Position numbers and translations under genes: made by a program. From Escherichia coli (GTDB lineage Bacteria; Pseudomonadota; Gammaproteobacteria; Enterobacterales; Enterobacteriaceae), in NCBI RefSeq assembly GCF_041886205.1, contig NZ_CP169029.1: a stretch of 64,000 nt of DNA; one strand, given 5' to 3'. Positions within the stretch are counted from its first letter, which is position 1, and every line of letters begins with the position of its first letter. Positions 18,815-49,969 of this stretch are shown piece by piece. A model generated the notes under the pieces. It ran no database searches. It saw nothing but the letters and a program-made list of their open reading frames with translations, and was not told where the DNA came from.

Positions 18815-19201
18815 ATGTACGACAATCTGAAAAGTCTGGGTATTACCAATCCTGAAGAAATTGATCGTTACAGCCTCCGGCAGGAAGCCAACAACGATAT
18901 TCTGAAAATCTATTTCCAGAAAGACAAAGGCGAGTTTTTCGCCAAGAGCGTTAAGTTTAAATATCCGCGTCAGCGTAAAACGGTCGTCGCTGATGGTGTG
19001 GGTCAGGGTTATAAAGAAGTCCAGGAAATCAGCCCGAATCTACGGTATATCATTGATGAGCTTGATCAAATCTGCCAGCGTGACCGCAGCGAAGTTGATC
19101 TTAAGCGTAAGATCCTCGACGACTTACGTCACCTGGAGTCAGTCGTAACCAATAAGATCAGCGAGATTGAAGCCGATCTGGAAAAACTAACGCGTAAATA
19201 A
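18815..19201 (+). CDS. yaeH: UPF0325 family protein YaeH (128 aa)
   Basis: 128-aa [45 protein letters not shown]...; conserved position between yaeI and cdaR. Confidence 0.85.
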
Positions 19202-19225
19202 TCCCGAATTGACGGTTAACTCGGG

Positions 19226-19259
19226 CATTCCCCTCTCCCCTTCGGGCTGAGGGGAATGA
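19226..19259. terminator. hairpin between convergent yaeH and cdaR
   Basis: 10-bp stem cattcccctc/gaggggaatg with 14-nt loop. Confidence 0.5.
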
Positions 19260-19289
19260 GCCAGCGCCGCCTCAACCTTAACGCATAAC

Positions 19290-20447
19290 CTACCGCTCTT
19301 CATCCAGTTGTAACGCCACATACAGCAGCAACCTGTCATCAAAATTGCCCAAATCAAGCCCGGTCAGTTCCGATATACGATTAAGCCGATACTCCAGGGT
19401 ATTACGATGAATAAACAACGCCTTTGACGTTGCCAGCGGTTGCACATTGTGACGAAACCACGCCGCCAGCGTTCGTCGCAGCAAGCCGTTATTGTCCATC
19501 GCTTTCAGCCGCGCCAGCGGTCGCGCCAGTTCGTTGGCCTGCCAGTCGCCACGCAAACTGTCGAGTAACACAGGTAACATCAGATCCTGATAAAAATAGC
19601 AGCGACTTTCTGGCATCCGCTGTTTACCCACCACCATCGTCGTTTTCGCCGTACGATAGGATCGGGCAATACTGCCAGGACCGGTAAAATAGTTGCCCAG
19701 TGAAACGCGAAAACGCAGCTGGCCGTACTCTTTCATGCGGGTAATCAGTTGTTCAACTCGCTTACGATGATCTTCTGCATCCCAGCGCCCAAAAGAGTTC
19801 AACGCCGGTTTCAACACCACCATTTCGGTCAGCGAGACAATTGCCACCAGATTATTACGCTCGGGCGTAGTCAGCGCGTTTTGCAGTTGTTGTAACTCCG
19901 CCATTGCGCTGTCCACACCAAGCTGACCGCTGTCGACCTCAACAATAGCCACCACTCGCGGTTGATTGAGATCGATCCCCAGCCGTTGCGCCCATTCAGT
20001 AAGTGCGGGAGTATTCTCCTCTGCCTGAATCAGGTTCATCACCAGTTCTTCCCGCAAACGGCTATCCTGCGCCAACAAGTGCATCAACCGCGACTGTTCC
20101 AGCATCATTTCAGCCGTCATGCAGACCAGTTCGCCATATTTACGCAGATTCTCTGGTTCACCTGTCAGGCCAATTACGCCGACAATTTCACCTTCCAGCC
20201 GTAACGGTAGATTAATCCCCTGCCGCACACCGTGCAGATGACGTGCTACCGCGTCATCGATATCGACGACTCGTCCCTGTGAAAGTACCAGCAATGCACC
20301 TTCGTGCAATTCACCAATACGCTCACGATCGCCGCTGCCGATAATTCGCCCACGGGCATCCATTACGTTGATATTGGTATCGATGATGCGCATGGTACGT
20401 GCCACGATATCCTGCGCCATTTTGGTATCAAGATGCCAGCCAGCCAT
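19290..20447 (-). CDS. cdaR: carbohydrate diacid regulator CdaR (SdaR), 385 aa
   Basis: Start taken at MAGWHLDTKMAQDIV... (ATG 20447, GGAGG RBS); C-terminal PucR-type HTH region. Confidence 0.88.
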   Translation of the reverse strand: MAGWHLDTKMAQDIVARTMRIIDTNINVMDARGRIIGSGDRERIGELHEGALLVLSQGRVVDIDDAVARHLHGVRQGINLPLRLEGEIVGVIGLTGEPENLRKYGELVCMTAEMMLEQSRLMHLLAQDSRLREELVMNLIQAEENTPALTEWAQRLGIDLNQPRVVAIVEVDSGQLGVDSAMAELQQLQNALTTPERNNLVAIVSLTEMVVLKPALNSFGRWDAEDHRKRVEQLITRMKEYGQLRFRVSLGNYFTGPGSIARSYRTAKTTMVVGKQRMPESRCYFYQDLMLPVLLDSLRGDWQANELARPLARLKAMDNNGLLRRTLAAWFRHNVQPLATSKALFIHRNTLEYRLNRISELTGLDLGNFDDRLLLYVALQLDEER

Positions 20448-20601
20448 AAGTCCTCCGTTATGCACGGCTTAGCATAAGGAAGTACGTAACGTACGGCATT
20501 GTGCAAATGCCTAAAGGATGATGAAGATGTATGGAGTTGTGGTAAAGTTCACAGATTGTAAGGAGAACCCCTTCCCGTTTTCAGGAAGGGGTTGAGGGAG
20601 A

Positions 20602-22026
20602 TTACTGCATTAACAGGTAGATGGTGCTGTCGCCGCGCTGAATGTTCAGTGCCAGCACAGACGGTTTGCTGTCGAGAACTTTACGCAGTTCAGCGATGTT
20701 TTTCACTGCCTGCTGGTTCGCGCCAATAATCACATCACCTTTCTTCAGGCCGATCTGCGCAGCCGGAGTGCCCGTTTTCACGTTGTTCACTACCACGCCC
20801 TGATCTTTGCCTTTGTTGCTCATCTCAGCACCTTCAATGCCGTTGAAGATGGAGCTGGAATCAACCTGATTCTGGCTGCTCTGCTGCAGTTCCAGATTCA
20901 CGTTGACCTGCTTACCGTCGCGCAGCAAGCCCAGGGTCAGTTTGCTGCCCACCGGCATAGTCCCCACCTGAGCACGCAGTGCGGCAAAGCTGCTGATTGG
21001 CTTACCGTTCAGTGAGGTGATCACATCACCCGCTTTAATGCCCGCTTTTGCAGCGGAGGAATTAGGCAGAACCTGGCTTACGAAAGCACCGCGCTGGGCG
21101 TCAACTTTCATCGCTTTCGCCAGTTCGGAGTTCAGCTCAGTCCCCATAATACCCAGCTCACCGCGTTTCACCTGGCCGTATTCCACCATCTGCGAGGTCA
21201 GGTTTTTCACCATGTTACTCGGGATAGCAAAACCGATACCGATGTTGCCGCCGTCCGGTGCGAGGATCGCGGTGTTGATACCGATCAGTTCGCCGTTCAG
21301 GTTAACCAGCGCACCACCGGAGTTACCACGGTTGATCGCTGCATCGGTCTGGATGAAGTTTTCGTAGTTTTCGGCATTCAGGCCGCTACGCCCCAGCGCA
21401 GAGACAATCCCGGAAGTTACCGTCTCGCCCAGACCAAACGGGTTACCAATCGCTACGGTGTAATCACCCACGCGCAGTGCATCAGAATCCGCCATCTTAA
21501 TTGCGGTCAGGTTTTTCGGGTTCTGGATTTGGATCAGCGCGATATCAGAGCGCGGATCTTTGCCAACCATCTTCGCGTCGAACTTACGGCCATCGCTCAG
21601 TTGAACTTTAATGACCGTCGCGTTATCAACAACGTGGTTGTTGGTGACGACATAGCCTTTATCGGCATCAATGATGACGCCGGAACCCAGCGCCATGAAT
21701 TTCTGTTGCTGGCCGCCACCATTACCGCCCTGGCCACCCTGGCAGAACGGAGAGCTCTGGAACGGAGAACCTTCCTGGCAGAACGGAGAATCATCACCGA
21801 AGAACTGCTGGAAATTACGCGGCATACGCGGCGTATTAACGGTTGTGCTACCTTCTACGTTAATGCTGACCACTGAAGGCATCACCTTTTCGAGCATCGG
21901 TGCAAGGCTTGGCATCTGCTGGGCTGTCGTTGCTGAAGAAGTCTCAGCCGCCGTTGCAGAGAGCGGAGATAACGCCAAACCTAAACTCAGAGCCAGTGCA
22001 CTCAGTGCTAATGTGGTTTTTTTCAT
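20602..22026 (-). CDS. degP: periplasmic serine endoprotease DegP (HtrA), 474 aa
   Basis: Signal peptide, trypsin-like domain with GNSGGAL active site, two C-terminal PDZ domains. Confidence 0.95.
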   Translation of the reverse strand: MKKTTLALSALALSLGLALSPLSATAAETSSATTAQQMPSLAPMLEKVMPSVVSINVEGSTTVNTPRMPRNFQQFFGDDSPFCQEGSPFQSSPFCQGGQGGNGGGQQQKFMALGSGVIIDADKGYVVTNNHVVDNATVIKVQLSDGRKFDAKMVGKDPRSDIALIQIQNPKNLTAIKMADSDALRVGDYTVAIGNPFGLGETVTSGIVSALGRSGLNAENYENFIQTDAAINRGNSGGALVNLNGELIGINTAILAPDGGNIGIGFAIPSNMVKNLTSQMVEYGQVKRGELGIMGTELNSELAKAMKVDAQRGAFVSQVLPNSSAAKAGIKAGDVITSLNGKPISSFAALRAQVGTMPVGSKLTLGLLRDGKQVNVNLELQQSSQNQVDSSSIFNGIEGAEMSNKGKDQGVVVNNVKTGTPAAQIGLKKGDVIIGANQQAVKNIAELRKVLDSKPSVLALNIQRGDSTIYLLMQ

Positions 22027-22071
22027 GTATTTCAGTCTCGATTAACAGATAACGCAAAATTGCTGTGTTCT

Positions 22072-23673: not shown

Positions 23674-23756
23674 GTCCTCTCCCGCGTGAGAAATACGCTT
23701 CCCCGTAAGCGCATGGTAAACTATGCCTTCAAATCGGGCTTATCGCGAGTAAATCT

Positions 23757-38057: not shown

Positions 38058-38153
38058 GCTTTTTCTCCGCAATATTCAGGCGCAAAAGCCCGATTTTCTG
38101 TTCTTCTGTTACAAGACAGAAGAAGATATCTCTCAAAATTTGTGCTCGATCGG

Positions 38154-38242
38154 TCCCCTCTCCCTTAAGGGAGAGGGTTAGGGTGAGGGTGAACGTGCGC
38201 GCTGATGCCCTCACCCCGGCCCTCTCCCACAGGGAGAGGGAG
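38154..38242. repeat. GC-rich palindromic extragenic repeat cluster (boxC/REP-like)
   Basis: Three adjacent dyads: cctctccc-ttaa-gggagagg, gggtgaggg...ccctcaccc, ccctctccc-acag-ggagaggg in the mrcB-hrpB spacer. Confidence 0.6.
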
Positions 38243-38252
38243 AAAACCAACC

Positions 38253-40682
38253 TTACGAATACTTTTTCGTCCGTCGCGTCGGTGCCGTGTTTGCCGGGTC
38301 GTCCGGCCAGACATGTTTGGGATAACGCCCTTTCATCTCTTTTTGCACCTCACGGTACGCTCCTTTCCAGAAGGCGCTCAAATCTCGTGTGATTTGTAAT
38401 GGCCTTTGGGCAGGGGAAAGCAACTCCAGCACCAGCGGCACGCGCCCCTGGGCGATCGTCGGATTGGTGGCCTCACCAAACATCTCCTGCATTCTCACCG
38501 CCAGCGCGGGCGGGTTATCTTCATGATAACGAATGGCGATCCGGCTTCCCGTCGGCACAGTGTAATGCGCAGGCAATTCACTATCCAGACGTTGCTGCAT
38601 TCCCCAATCAAGTAATCCGCGTAGTGCCTGATAAATGTCGAGTGATTTCAGGCCGCGTAGTGAATGCACGCCGGTCATATGTGGCAGCAGCCACGTTTCC
38701 AGCGTCGCCAACAAACTTTCATTATCAACCGCAGGCCAGTCATATTCCGGCAACCACTTTGCGGCGCATAACAAACGCAAGCGTAGCTGTTCCGCTTCCG
38801 CCGTCCAGTTGAGCACGCTTAAACCTTTATCACTAATGCCGTTAAGCATCGCCTGATGCAACTCGTCTTCTGACGGTTTCGCCAGTGGCTGCACTTTCAC
38901 CGTCAGCTGACCGATTTGCAGCCGACGCCAGGCTTTCAGCGTACCTTGCGCGTCATCCCACTCCACAGTGTCAGACTGCTGTACCAGCTGCGGGCAGCGT
39001 TGTACTAACTCATCAATATCGACCGGCAGCGCCAGTAAAATCCGCGCATCCGGCGAGGCGCTGCCCTGCAATAATAACGGTGCGATCAACCATTCGTGGC
39101 GGCTTAGCGCATCGTCGGCATCGAGCATCGCTCCCATGCCGTTTGCCAGTTGATAGCGTCCATCTTGCCCACGGCGATGAGCAATGCGATCGGCAAACGC
39201 CCCGGCAAGTAGCGGCGCGATAAGCGAACTGTCTGCCTCTCCGCCGCGTACGTTTAAGCGTTTTAACAGTTGCTGACTACGTTGCTGCCAGGCTGGTTGA
39301 TTGCGCGAAAACGCCACGCCCAGGTCACTATTGCCCATCCGTGGCGGCTCTTCGAGAATGGCGGCAATTTTTGCCGCGGTAGCAGCTTCGTCGTCGTTCT
39401 TTGCGCTAACCAGCATTGCCGCTAAACGCGGATCGTTACCCAGCGCTGCCATTTTTTGCCCCTGCGCACTAAGCCGTTCACCGTCCAGCGCCCCCAGCAT
39501 CTTTAACAGGCGTTTCGCGGCCAGTAAATTCACTGCTGGCGGTTGATCCAGCCAGCTCATCTGCGCCGGATCGCTGCATCCCCATTGCAGTAATTCCATC
39601 AGCAAACCGGAAAGATCGCTTTGTAAGATCTCCGGTTCACTTTGCGCGGCAGCGCGTTCTGCTTGTTCTTTGGCGATTAAATGCAGGCTGATACCCGGCT
39701 CCAGACGCCCGGCGCGCCCGGCACGCTGCGTCATCGACGCCTGACTGATTCGCTGAGTAATCAACCGCGTAAGCCCTGTTCGCGGATCAAAACGCGCCAC
39801 CCTTTCCTGGGCACAATCCACCACCAGACGAATACCTTCGATGGTTAAACTGGTTTCAGCAATATTGGTCGCCAGCACCACTTTGCGCATCCCTTGCGGT
39901 GCCGGAAGGATCGCTTTTCGCTGATCGTTCAGCGACAACGCGCCATACAGCGGGCAGAGCAACACATCACTGCCGATACGCGAAGCCAGTTGTTCCTGCA
40001 CACGCTGAATTTCTCCGACGCCTGGTAAAAATAACAGTAATGATCCACTTTCCTGACGCAGCATTTCAGCGGTGGCTACCGCAACGGCTTCGTCAAAACG
40101 CTGATGCGCGGGCAGCGGTAAATAACGGCGTTCAACCGGAAACGAGCGCCCTTCTGAGATGACGACGGGCGCTTCTGGTAGCATTTGTTGCAAGCGGTCG
40201 TTGTCCAGCGTAGCCGACATAATCAGCAGTTTAAGGTCATCACGCAGACCTTGTTGCACATCGAGTAACAGCGCCAACGCCAAATCCGCCTGCAAGCTAC
40301 GCTCATGAAATTCATCAAGGATCACCAATCCAACACCGCTCAACTCCGGGTCACGCTGGATCATCCGCGTCAGCACGCCTTCGGTAACTACTTCCAGGCG
40401 GGTATTCGGCCCGACGCAGTTTTGCGCACGCATCCGGTAGCCAACGGTATCGCCTGGCTTTTCGTTAAGCAGCTCCGCCAGCCGTTGCGCGACGTTACGC
40501 GCCGCCAGACGACGCGGCTCCAGCAGGATAATTTTCCCGTTAATGCCGGGATGCGCCAGCAGTTGCAGCGGCAGCCAGGTTGATTTCCCGGCCCCGGTCG
40601 GCGCACTTAATAATACCTGCGGCGCATAATCGAGAGCGGTAAGTAATTCAGGTAAGACGGCAGCAACGGGCAACGACGACAC
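38253..40682 (-). CDS. hrpB: ATP-dependent RNA helicase HrpB (DEAH-box), 809 aa
   Basis: Walker A APTGAGKST, DEFH box; start assigned to GTG 40682..40680 (VSSLPVAAVLPELL..., read as M); the ORF-track start at 40727 is probably too long. Confidence 0.85.
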   Translation of the reverse strand: MSSLPVAAVLPELLTALDYAPQVLLSAPTGAGKSTWLPLQLLAHPGINGKIILLEPRRLAARNVAQRLAELLNEKPGDTVGYRMRAQNCVGPNTRLEVVTEGVLTRMIQRDPELSGVGLVILDEFHERSLQADLALALLLDVQQGLRDDLKLLIMSATLDNDRLQQMLPEAPVVISEGRSFPVERRYLPLPAHQRFDEAVAVATAEMLRQESGSLLLFLPGVGEIQRVQEQLASRIGSDVLLCPLYGALSLNDQRKAILPAPQGMRKVVLATNIAETSLTIEGIRLVVDCAQERVARFDPRTGLTRLITQRISQASMTQRAGRAGRLEPGISLHLIAKEQAERAAAQSEPEILQSDLSGLLMELLQWGCSDPAQMSWLDQPPAVNLLAAKRLLKMLGALDGERLSAQGQKMAALGNDPRLAAMLVSAKNDDEAATAAKIAAILEEPPRMGNSDLGVAFSRNQPAWQQRSQQLLKRLNVRGGEADSSLIAPLLAGAFADRIAHRRGQDGRYQLANGMGAMLDADDALSRHEWLIAPLLLQGSASPDARILLALPVDIDELVQRCPQLVQQSDTVEWDDAQGTLKAWRRLQIGQLTVKVQPLAKPSEDELHQAMLNGISDKGLSVLNWTAEAEQLRLRLLCAAKWLPEYDWPAVDNESLLATLETWLLPHMTGVHSLRGLKSLDIYQALRGLLDWGMQQRLDSELPAHYTVPTGSRIAIRYHEDNPPALAVRMQEMFGEATNPTIAQGRVPLVLELLSPAQRPLQITRDLSAFWKGAYREVQKEMKGRYPKHVWPDDPANTAPTRRTKKYS

Positions 40683-47347: not shown

Positions 47348-49969
47348 ATGACGACGCCTTTCAACGGCACAAAATTTCCCCTCTCTCCACTCGCTTGTCT
47401 GGTGGCGTTCAGTCTGCTGCCCTGCGCCTACAGCGCCATGGCGGCAGAGGAAGCTGTTGAATTTGATAACACCTTCCTGATGGGGGCCGGTGCCAAAAAT
47501 ATCGACGTCAATCGCTACAGTGATGGCAACCCCGCATTGCCAGGCCGTCACGACGTAAGCGTGTTTATCAACAATAAGCCGATCAGCAATCTGTCCATGG
47601 AGTTTATTGAAATAGCGAATAGCCGTAGCGCCAAACCCTGTATCTCTGCCAGCACCCTGCTCCAGCTGCATATTCGCCTGCCGGATAATCTCGACGATAC
47701 GGCGATTTTGCAAAAGCGCGACAGTACCGCGCAGGACTGTCTTAATCTTGAGGTCGCCATTCCCCAGTCCAGCCTCACCTATAACAGTAACGATCAGCGG
47801 ATGGACATTAATGTGCCTCAGCTGTGGTTACAAAAAACTTACGCTAACTATGTGGATCCTTCCCTGTGGGACGAAGGGATCAACGCAGCCATGTTTTCTT
47901 ACACGCTGAATGGCTGGCGCAGTGAATCGCCCGATCAAACCGCAGAGAGTACCTATGCCGGGCTGATGGGCGGCTTTAATTTATGGGGATGGCATTTCCG
48001 TTCGCACGGCAACTATTCATGGGACAAAGAGAGTGGCGGCAGTTTCGAGTTCCAGGACAAGTACCTGCAACGTGATATCACCAGGCTGCGGTCACAACTG
48101 GTTGTCGGTGAAACCAACACTACGGGGGAAACCTTTGATTCCGTTCGTATTCGCGGTGTTCGTCTCTACAGCGAAAGCCGCATGCTGCCACCGACGCTCG
48201 CCTCTTACGCGCCGGTGATCCGTGGGGTCGCGAACTCCAACGCCAAAGTAACAATTACCCAGAACGGCTACAAGATTTACGAAACGACGGTGCCGCCAGG
48301 CCCCTTTGCTATCGATGATTTGTCGCCAGCCGGATTTGGTGCCGATCTCGAAGTCACGGTCACCGAGTCTGACGGCTCACAGCGAACATTCACTCAGGCC
48401 TATTCGTCGGTGATCCAGATGATGCGCCCCGGCGTGGGCAAATGGGACATCAGCGCGGGTGAAATCAAAAAAGATGAGCTGAAGGACAAGCCCAATCTGA
48501 TACAGGGAACGTACTACTACGGGTTAAGTAATACGTTTACCGGCTATACCGGCCTGCAAATGACCGATAACGGCTACTGGGCCGGATTGTTAGGCCTTGG
48601 GATGAACACCTCATTGGGGGCATTTTCTCTTGATGTGACGCAGTCGCACACCGAAATCCCCAACGACAAAACCTATGAGGGCCAGAGCTACCGTATTTCG
48701 TGGAACAAATATTTTGCACCGACCGAAACGTCACTCAACATTGCGGCCTATCGCTACTCGACAAAAAACTATCTCGGTTTGAACGACGCCCTGACGCTGA
48801 TCAACGCTGCTAACCATCCTTATGATGAAGGTTACAAGGGAATCGTCTCCTATGGGCGTATGAAAAACCAGTTCAGCGTCAGCCTCAACCAGACGTTAAA
48901 AAATAGCGAGCGGGATTATGGTTCCTTCTACTTGAACGGGACATGGACGGACTACTGGGCCACTAATGAATCACAGAGTAGTTTTGCGTTTGGTTACAGC
49001 AGCGGCTTTGACTGGGCCAGCTACAGCGTCAGCCTGCAACGTACCTATGACGAAGACAATAACAAAGATGACTCTATCTATCTCAGCCTGACCATTCCGC
49101 TGGACAAACTGTTCGGCAGCGATAGCCGCGAAGGTGGCTTTAGGACACTGAATACCAGCGTCAACAGCGATATGAAGGGCAGTTCGCAATACAACGCTAA
49201 TGCCACCGGCTACAGCCAGGACAACCGCTGGAACTACAGCGTCAACACCTCCTATAACGCATTGAAAGAGACGGAAAGCCTGAAAACCATCAGTGGTTTC
49301 ACCAGCTATGAGTCACCCTGGGACACCCTTTCCGGTTCCGTCTCCGCCAGTAGCGACCACAGTCGTCAGTATGGCGTGAGTACCGATGGCGGCTTTGTGT
49401 TACATCGCCACGGGCTTACGTTCAGTAACGACAGCTTTACCGATTCAGACACGCTGGCGCTGGTCAACGCCCCCGGCGCGAAAGGTGCGCAAATTAACTT
49501 TGGCAGCAGTACCGTGGACCGATTTGGCTACGGGGTAACCAGTGCGCTTTCTCCGTATCATGAAAACACCGTCGCCCTCAACGTGGACAACCTGGATGAA
49601 GATGTGGAACTGAAAAGCACCAGCACCGTCGCGATCCCGCGCCAGGGTGCGATTATCTTCAGCCATTTCGACACCGACACCGGGCGTTCAGCCATTCTTA
49701 ACCTGCTGCGCAGTGATAAGCAGCCCGTACCGTTTGCTTCCGATGTGACAGACAGCAGCGGGCAGTCCATCGGCACAGTTGGGCAAGGGAGCCAGGCTTT
49801 CGTTCGCGGCATTGCCGACGAAGGGGAGCTGGTGGTTTCCTGGTATGAAAAAAATAGCCAGAAACAGTGCCGCATTCACTACCAGATACCGCCCTCTCCC
49901 ACCATGACGGGCAAAACTATCGTATTAAACGCCGTGCCCTGCACCCTGCAATCACAGGAGAGGAAATGA
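47348..49969 (+). CDS. htrE: fimbrial outer membrane usher HtrE (873 aa)
   Basis: 873-aa ORF with signal peptide and usher-size beta-barrel protein between chaperone and minor subunits. Confidence 0.9.
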   Translation: MTTPFNGTKFPLSPLACLVAFSLLPCAYSAMAAEEAVEFDNTFLMGAGAKNIDVNRYSDGNPALPGRHDVSVFINNKPISNLSMEFIEIANSRSAKPCISASTLLQLHIRLPDNLDDTAILQKRDSTAQDCLNLEVAIPQSSLTYNSNDQRMDINVPQLWLQKTYANYVDPSLWDEGINAAMFSYTLNGWRSESPDQTAESTYAGLMGGFNLWGWHFRSHGNYSWDKESGGSFEFQDKYLQRDITRLRSQLVVGETNTTGETFDSVRIRGVRLYSESRMLPPTLASYAPVIRGVANSNAKVTITQNGYKIYETTVPPGPFAIDDLSPAGFGADLEVTVTESDGSQRTFTQAYSSVIQMMRPGVGKWDISAGEIKKDELKDKPNLIQGTYYYGLSNTFTGYTGLQMTDNGYWAGLLGLGMNTSLGAFSLDVTQSHTEIPNDKTYEGQSYRISWNKYFAPTETSLNIAAYRYSTKNYLGLNDALTLINAANHPYDEGYKGIVSYGRMKNQFSVSLNQTLKNSERDYGSFYLNGTWTDYWATNESQSSFAFGYSSGFDWASYSVSLQRTYDEDNNKDDSIYLSLTIPLDKLFGSDSREGGFRTLNTSVNSDMKGSSQYNANATGYSQDNRWNYSVNTSYNALKETESLKTISGFTSYESPWDTLSGSVSASSDHSRQYGVSTDGGFVLHRHGLTFSNDSFTDSDTLALVNAPGAKGAQINFGSSTVDRFGYGVTSALSPYHENTVALNVDNLDEDVELKSTSTVAIPRQGAIIFSHFDTDTGRSAILNLLRSDKQPVPFASDVTDSSGQSIGTVGQGSQAFVRGIADEGELVVSWYEKNSQKQCRIHYQIPPSPTMTGKTIVLNAVPCTLQSQERK

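Follow-up and report, generated by a model that had tools for sequence, protein, structure and literature searches.

Of three GC-rich hairpins that lie between genes in a 64,000-nucleotide stretch of Escherichia coli chromosome (the window, which is oriented in reverse relative to K-12), two appear to belong to the long-known BoxC repeat family and the third does not appear to. With a probability of roughly 0.8, we read the hairpins of the yaeH–cdaR spacer (site 1) and the hrpB–mrcB spacer (site 2) as BoxC copies, the first of them decayed, the hairpin after yadH (site 3) as an unrelated, terminator-like stem-loop, and the BoxC hairpin itself as an element that may set RNA 3′ ends. The finding is mostly known biology and adds little as discovery.

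The original prediction had placed hairpins built on the same GC-rich arm at all three sites and had proposed that they form one small repeat family rather than a set of independent terminators. Folding does predict a stem-loop at each of the three sites, and the coordinates given were right to within 1–5 nt (19226–19258, 38156–38240 and 58396–58425), but the arm pair that was named, CCTCTCCC...GGGAGAGG, is present at site 2 only. The arm is not the same throughout: the stem of site 1 lacks GGGAGAGG, and its 8-mer hangs on one SNP in E. coli (K-12 and strain B4103-1 have CCTCTACC there), while site 3 shares only the 7-mer CCTCTCC. We consider the observation partly confirmed and the repeat-family interpretation partly supported, since a common family is borne out for sites 1 and 2, as BoxC, but not for site 3, which gives E 4.3 against a BoxC profile.

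The genes that border the three sites, taken from the open reading frames, are arranged as follows.

18815–19201, plus strand, yaeH, converging on cdaR
19290–20465, minus strand, cdaR
38253 and 38072, both minus strand, end of hrpB and start of mrcB
58432 and 58327, both minus strand, end of yadH and start of yadI

In the window as a whole, the 8-mer CCTCTCCC is enriched (8 occurrences against 0.77 expected), and the arm pair occurs twice where 0 occurrences are expected, both times at site 2 (38157–38176 and 38221–38239). Occurrences of the 8-mer at 23676, in the ribosome-binding region of a 505-aa open reading frame, and at 49893, within an 873-aa open reading frame, are irrelevant here. A simple terminator and promoter scan, which looks for a hairpin plus a T-run, called none of the three hairpins, and Rfam at its gathering thresholds gave no match at any of the three sites and has no family for the BoxC pair. 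The matches that Rfam does return in the window at gathering score are three: CssrA sRNA (136.6 bits; 12116–12225, minus strand), t44 RNA (84.6 bits; 13064–13150, minus strand) and the HtrA 5′ UTR thermometer (77 bits; 22021–22066, minus strand).

BoxC sequences at hrpB–mrcB and yaeH–cdaR

Descriptions of the family as BoxC go back to the 1990s, and work by Bergler and Bachellier in that decade and by Hoyne et al. in 2000 stands behind the names BoxC, PIT (potential intrastrand triplex) and TMECO, under which it has been known for some 30 years. For Holder et al. (2015; PMC4666352), TMECO is one and the same as the 1990s BoxC repeat and Hoyne and Maher's PIT element; they define it by the consensus CCCTCNCCC-N3-6-GGGNGAGGG-N3-GGGNGAGGG, catalogue 23 copies in MG1655 and report its absence from Salmonella. 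In a unit, a C-block of 9–10 nt is followed across a short loop by a complementary G-block and, after a 3-nt loop, by a second G-block; the flanks are loosely conserved and, in the 13 K-12 copies fetched with flanks, read roughly GYGCnCGgaCgGTC (5′) and GAAMa...GCGCAC (3′). Single-stranded BoxC DNA forms a purine-motif triplex in vitro, as seen by CD and NMR for type A and type B oligonucleotides, and a polymerase stop is also reported, but in vivo footprinting did not support a stable triplex (PMC4666352). The sequence around TMECO loci is variable over ~3 kb, and BoxC loci are described as hypervariable (PMC4666352); the same paper cites Hoyne and Maher as having found promoter or terminator activity absent for these elements in reporter tests.

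By its sequence, site 2 is an intact inverted BoxC pair that has already been catalogued. Its two units are the following.

38156–38190, plus strand, BoxC/TMECO unit of type A, CCCTCTCCC-TTAA-GGGAGAGGG-TTA-GGGTGAGGG-T (38136–38205 with flanks)
38207–38240, minus strand, BoxC/TMECO unit of type B, CCCTCTCCC-TGT-GGGAGAGGG-CCG-GGGTGAGGG-C (38189–38255 with flanks)

The type B unit, which starts 12 nt past the hrpB stop codon, is inverted relative to the type A unit. The three-block consensus has two exact matches here (38156–38189 on the plus strand and 38208–38240 on the minus strand), with 0 expected by chance; against a profile that includes the flanks, the two units reach E values of 4e-16 and 2e-10, and the type A unit scores 54.1 bits with flanks and 32.4 bits against the published cores. 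Except for one loop base, the sequences are entries 1 and 2 in Table 1 of Holder et al. (2015), the type A unit being TMECO no. 2 of MG1655 (164631–164597) and the type B unit TMECO no. 1 (164547–164580); the pair carries no RefSeq annotation. Over 106 nt, the two strands fold at −66.7 and −69.4 kcal/mol (z −6.6 and −7.1), and the terminator scan found no T-run, on either strand, after the hairpins of sites 1 and 2. Used as a query, the 96-bp pair has matches in 4524 of 5426 complete E. coli genomes; the median number of places per genome is 8 and the maximum 22.

Four states of the hrpB–mrcB spacer (window positions 38073–38252) occur among E. coli genomes. The A/B BoxC pair is the state of the window, K-12 and EDL933, and is covered to at least 80% in 3535 genomes; in ~1890 others, EC958 (ST131) being an example, the element is absent and 11 unrelated nucleotides, CTTTGGTCTTC, stand in its place. 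In an O111:H8 strain, the loss of 64 nt between the pair's two CCCTCTCCC blocks has left just a plain hairpin, CCCTCTCCC-ACA-GGGAGAGGG, and strain GF3-3, together with 31 other genomes, has a non-identical pair in the opposite orientation, with a B unit on the left and, on the right, a type A unit with one stem mismatch; because the flanks and loops differ, this is not a simple inversion. No target-site duplications and no clean empty-versus-filled junctions were definable at hrpB–mrcB or at the Enterobacter yaeH loci, and the alternative hrpB–mrcB alleles look more like the outcome of cassette replacement than of simple insertion.

At site 1, between the convergent genes yaeH and cdaR, we see what is probably the remaining hairpin half of a BoxC type A unit, beside a second, smaller hairpin.

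19226–19258, plus strand, site 1 hairpin, putative hairpin half of a decayed BoxC type A unit, CATTCCCCTC-TCCCCTTCGGGCT-GAGGGGAATG
19203–19225, minus strand, small hairpin called by the terminator scan, terminator-like for cdaR and followed by ATTATTT

With its BoxC-like flanks, the wider relic spans ~19218–19271. The stem, CATTCCCCTC/GAGGGGAATG with an inner CCC/GGG, folds at −25.5 kcal/mol on the plus strand (z −2.0; as DNA, z −5.1). The three-block BoxC consensus has no match at 19226–19258, where only the C-block and one imperfect G-block (GGGCTGAGGGG) are present, and BLAST against the 5426 E. coli genomes finds no second copy of the spacer, with one place per genome even at E 10. With a profile built from only the 23 published cores, the site is not separable from noise (6.8 bits, E 0.64); against a profile of the 13 K-12 copies with 22-nt flanks, it matches at 19218–19253 with 13.7 bits and a modest E of 0.0015, the flanks having doubled the score relative to the core-only profile, and the sequences at either side of the hairpin, GCTCGGGCAGTC and GCCAGCGC, are similar to BoxC flanks. 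With the same flank profile and search space, the E. coli copies of B4103-1 and K-12 score 12.8 bits and only 9.7 bits (E 0.054), respectively. The small hairpin, which alone in this spacer was called as terminator-like, lies directly against the stop codon of yaeH, and its right arm overlaps the 5′ flank of the relic; it has one mismatch each in the window and in K-12, at different positions (AATT...AACT versus AACT...AATT).

The assignment of site 1 to BoxC rests mainly on a series of orthologues whose surroundings are clearly homologous to the E. coli yaeH–cdaR spacer. Against the flank-including profile, the orthologue of E. whittamii (CAGTCCCCTCTCCCC-TTC-GGGAAGAGGG-TGAGGGG), which had no part in building that profile, reaches 30.3 bits (E 2e-8), that of Escherichia sp. 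MOD1-EC7003 (CTCCTCTCCCC-TTC-GGGGAGAGGG-TGAGGGG) 26.5 bits (E 3e-7) and that of Escherichia sp. E1V33 (CCCCTCTTCCC-TTC-GGGGTGAGGGG) 21.4 bits (E 1e-5). In alignment with the canonical type A unit, with the row of the fimH–gntP copy set aside, E. whittamii and MOD1-EC7003 are short by 6 nt and E1V33 and E. coli by 12 nt, and 12 nt is exactly one period of the direct repeat formed by the BoxC G-blocks; a BoxC copy downstream of yaeH in Lelliottia nimipressuralis also has a 12-nt deletion. Site 1 would have lost one such period, made up of a G-block and the second loop, slippage of one G-block direct repeat on the other being the most likely route. Because the canonical form is multi-copy and the flanks match, we infer that the direction of change was decay and not growth. 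Having no third block, the site therefore cannot form the intrastrand triplex. Site 1 is not among the 23 TMECO copies of the published K-12 list, and the genes yaeH, cdaR and yadH do not appear in the part of its supplement available as text; as far as that text shows, the site is an uncatalogued, degenerate member of the family.

The yaeH–cdaR spacer (19202–19289) is itself dimorphic. An 88-bp allele with the BoxC relic is found in 3565 E. coli genomes, and an alternative 53-bp allele with an unrelated GCCGGGT...ACCCGGC hairpin and a T-run in ~1780, ST131 included; the 53-bp type is shared with E. albertii, the 88-bp type with E. whittamii and two further Escherichia species, and the polymorphism therefore crosses species boundaries. 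Both BoxC loci of the window are polymorphic, with variants such as recombination or slippage among the repeats of the element itself would be expected to produce, and the polymorphism at hrpB–mrcB and yaeH–cdaR fits the published picture of BoxC loci as hypervariable (PMC4666352).

Comparison of yaeH loci from 80 species places a BoxC-profile match no more than 200 nt downstream of yaeH in 13 of them. This slot has been refilled repeatedly: Pseudocitrobacter has inverted BoxC pairs in it, Enterobacter has type B units that stand singly, REP-like units take the place of BoxC in the yaeH–cdaR spacer of Citrobacter and some Enterobacter species, and other species have plain hairpins. Upstream of yaeH, at a distance of ~120 nt, a match to the BoxC hairpin half is found in two Kosakonia, Enterobacter sp. 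Bisph1 and Phytobacter massiliensis.

The hairpin downstream of yadH

Site 3 is not BoxC, and nothing in its sequence beyond base composition links it to the family. The features at this site are a hairpin and, beyond it, a promoter-like sequence.

58396–58425, minus strand, site 3, a predicted 12-bp CT/GA stem-loop that starts 6 nt past the yadH stop codon
58366–58393, minus strand, promoter-like site upstream of yadI, TTGACG-16 nt-AACAAT, from a consensus scan only

The site has no match to the three-block BoxC consensus, lacking both the CCCTCNCCC block and the third block, and its score against the flank-including BoxC profile is at noise level (2.7 bits, E 4.3; E 2.2 with the core-only profile). 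BLAST against the 5426 E. coli genomes found no second copies of its spacer, and one place per genome even at E 10. Site 3 shares only a short CT-rich arm with the others, extended similarity being absent, and is single-copy, which is the outcome that the original prediction itself had named as speaking against its membership in the family.

The arms, TCCTCTCC(TCT)/(GGG)GGAGAGGA, fold at −21.1 kcal/mol on the minus strand (z −2.6). After the stem the sequence reads UUUUGACG, with UUUU (58395–58392) and then a conserved TTGAC; this U-tract has four U only and falls under the scan threshold of 5 T in 8, and the −35 hexamer of the promoter-like site upstream of yadI overlaps it. The yadH–yadI spacer is at least 94.6% identical in 5424 genomes. 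Among orthologous loci obtained via relatives of YadI, all 11 have a hairpin a few nucleotides past the yadH stop codon, in a spacer of 103–122 nt, and the hairpin is followed by (T)TTTGAC and a conserved ATCAC. In Escherichia-like genomes, Salmonella and Citrobacter the stem is CT/GA-rich, and 4 of its 8 consensus pairs have undergone double (compensatory) changes; in Klebsiella, Enterobacter bugandensis, Yokenella and Pseudescherichia the hairpin in this place is GC-rich and unrelated in sequence. A hairpin conserved in position, with compensatory changes in its stem, leads us to read site 3 as a vertically inherited structural element, which looks most simply like a candidate weak intrinsic terminator or attenuator for yadGH. 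The K-12 Term-seq data of Adams et al. (2021; PMC7815308) list no RNA 3′ end at site 3, and searches of the open-access literature on the repeat family and on yadH/yadI terminators yielded nothing further than Holder et al. (2015) and Petrillo et al. (2008).

One related record is anomalous. At a locus labelled Enterobacter hormaechei (CP169086.1, positions 484–610), the yadH–yadI spacer is identical to that of E. coli and the adjoining YadI is only 80% identical to the YadI of the window, which points to recombination at the locus or to a record that is mislabelled or chimeric.

RNA 3′ ends at BoxC hairpins

RNA 3′ ends were taken from the curated Term-seq data of Adams et al. (2021; PMC7815308, Supplementary files 1 and 2), which describe K-12 and not the strain of the window. 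The sequence column of these files comprises 50 nt upstream, the 3′ end and 10 nt downstream, as we checked on the dapD and adk terminators and on K-12 coordinates. Two of the listed ends have equivalents at the BoxC sites of the window.

19261, plus strand, equivalent of the dominant yaeH RNA 3′ end (MG1655 183649, minus strand), 3 nt after the site 1 hairpin
38151, minus strand, equivalent of an RNA 3′ end at site 2 (MG1655 164636, plus strand), 5 nt after the hairpin of the type A unit

The first of these, 183649(−), is entered twice in the three-condition table, with scores of 70972 and 131285, and a Rho termination region lies 66 nt downstream of it, at 183583 (Rho score 5.05, p 1.9e-7; PMC7815308). 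The second, 164636(+), has a score of 987, is classed as 'orphan' and lies 94 nt upstream of mrcB (PMC7815308); its equivalent at 38151 lies at the base of the long hairpin into which the whole site 2 pair folds. Elsewhere in K-12, the end at 3781065(+), downstream of lldD, falls 4 nt after the hairpin of TMECO no. 17, and that at 3959467(−), downstream of ppiC, 4 nt after the hairpin of TMECO no. 20. By a rough estimate (48 three-nt windows, ~3100 listed 3′ ends and 9.3 M stranded positions), ~0.05 such coincidences would arise by chance. Most K-12 BoxC loci have no 3′ end listed in Adams et al. (2021), and for this reason the role of BoxC at 3′ ends is context-dependent and may be incidental; transcripts of adk read past their BoxC copy and stop 60 nt further on, at a canonical terminator, and transcription of gcvP terminates ahead of its BoxC pair. 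In the fepB leader, one strong 3′ end lies 12 nt beyond a BoxC inverted pair (MG1655 624567(−), score 50301) and another 4 nt ahead of it (624680(−), scores 103563/243213); these ends could reflect processing of the pair's long hairpin, for example by RNase III.

REP hairpins shield upstream mRNA from 3′–5′ exonucleases, and the ends described above suggest that BoxC has a REP-like role in setting mRNA 3′ ends. The BoxC unit would be transcribed as part of a 3′ UTR, Rho-dependent termination would occur further downstream, and the BoxC RNA hairpin, by analogy with REP, would then block 3′–5′ exonucleases and so leave an RNA 3′ end 3–5 nt after the C-block/G-block hairpin, without itself acting as a classical U-tract terminator. 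For Rho-terminated transcripts in general, Adams et al. (PMC7815308) cite hairpins as the barrier to 3′–5′ exonucleases, and a BoxC hairpin that is an exonuclease barrier and not a terminator agrees with the earlier negative terminator assays. Because the barrier role needs the hairpin only, we propose that a relic with just the hairpin half can persist. We found no paper that ties the E. coli BoxC repeat to RNA 3′ ends in the open-access literature, coverage of which is incomplete, and we claim no priority.

Alternative readings and known systems

Could all three sites nevertheless descend from BoxC, site 3 being an old relic cut to its hairpin half, like the O111:H8 allele? We judge this improbable. 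That allele demonstrates that a BoxC pair can collapse to such a hairpin, and the site 3 orthologues of Citrobacter rodentium (TCCTCTCCC-TGCCGC-GGGAGAGGA) and C. freundii (CTTCCTCTCCCGG-ACC-GGGAGAGGAAG) are very like a BoxC hairpin core; yet site 3 itself scores at noise (2.7 bits, E 4.3), BoxC flank similarity and any trace of a third block are absent from every one of its orthologues, the length of the spacer and the downstream TTGAC...ATCAC are conserved, genera with sequence-unrelated stems have a hairpin at the same position, and the element is present in Salmonella, where TMECO is reported absent (PMC4666352). The opposite view, that these are three independent, locus-specific terminators whose CT-rich arm arose by chance or by a convergent preference for polypyrimidine/polypurine stems, with no repeat family at all, has very little to recommend it. 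It would accord with the single-copy state of sites 1 and 3 in 5426 E. coli genomes, with the SNP on which the 8-mer of site 1 depends and with the core-only BoxC profile (E 0.64 for site 1 and E 2.2 for site 3), but site 2 is unquestionably multi-copy and catalogued, which refutes it there, orthologues of site 1 reach E 2e-8 against a BoxC profile built without them, and the hairpin-plus-T-run scan called none of the three.

What the BoxC hairpin does is a separate matter. It is possible, though we are inclined to doubt it, that BoxC matters at the DNA level only, a transient triplex or cruciform stalling replication and giving rise to deletions and rearrangements, with the RNA 3′ ends a by-product of any stable hairpin and without a selected role. 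The triplex and polymerase stop seen in vitro and the ~3 kb of variability around TMECO loci (PMC4666352) are in keeping with this, as is the polymorphism of both BoxC loci of the window, in four states at hrpB–mrcB and two alleles at yaeH–cdaR; in vivo footprinting, however, argues against a stable triplex (PMC4666352), and the site 1 relic lacks the third block of the triplex and yet occurs in 3565 genomes with a strong RNA 3′ end. The DNA-level view is also compatible with an RNA-level reading.

Under our preferred reading, with BoxC copies at sites 1 and 2 whose hairpins set RNA 3′ ends, the ends 3–5 nt after the BoxC hairpin at four loci would give BoxC a testable role at the RNA level. 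A tentative extension, which we would not yet call probable, is that BoxC hairpins make up a second, REP-like class of elements that define and stabilise mRNA 3′ ends, with the hairpin half under selection; this would explain the frequent persistence of relics that lack the third block, such as the yaeH–cdaR copy, with strong 3′ ends, and the refilling of the same 3′ UTR slots by BoxC, REP or plain hairpins across lineages. More speculatively, BoxC may be a non-autonomous mobile element that prefers such 3′ UTR slots, as hinted by the opposite, non-identical hrpB–mrcB pair in 32 genomes and by the 13 of 80 species with BoxC downstream of yaeH. The routes of decay encountered here—loss of 6- and 12-nt periods, and the collapse of pairs to plain hairpins—would mean that consensus-based censuses undercount the family and that some apparently orphan CT-rich hairpins of E. 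coli are BoxC relics.

Set beside known systems, site 2 conforms to BoxC/PIT/TMECO as an intergenic, GC-rich and multi-copy inverted pair of a type A and a type B unit. Site 1 shares with the family the C-block, the first loop, part of the G-block and both flanks, but with two of the three blocks and a single copy it qualifies only as a diverged relic. As with Rho-independent terminators, each of the three stem-loops follows closely on a stop codon, and site 3 combines a 12-bp stem with UUUU; unlike such terminators, sites 1 and 2 have no U-tract, their 3′ ends lie 3–5 nt after the stem, and a Rho region lies beyond site 1. REP/BIME elements resemble BoxC in being short, GC-rich palindromic repeats in 3′ UTRs or between convergent genes, often in inverted pairs, but they have no sequence relationship to it, and the REP core GCCKGATGNNNCG, the GCC(G/T)GATG...CG palindromic unit, has 0 matches in the whole window; we know of no RAYT-type transposase for BoxC. 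In function, by the analogy drawn above, REP/BIME would be the closest analogue of BoxC.
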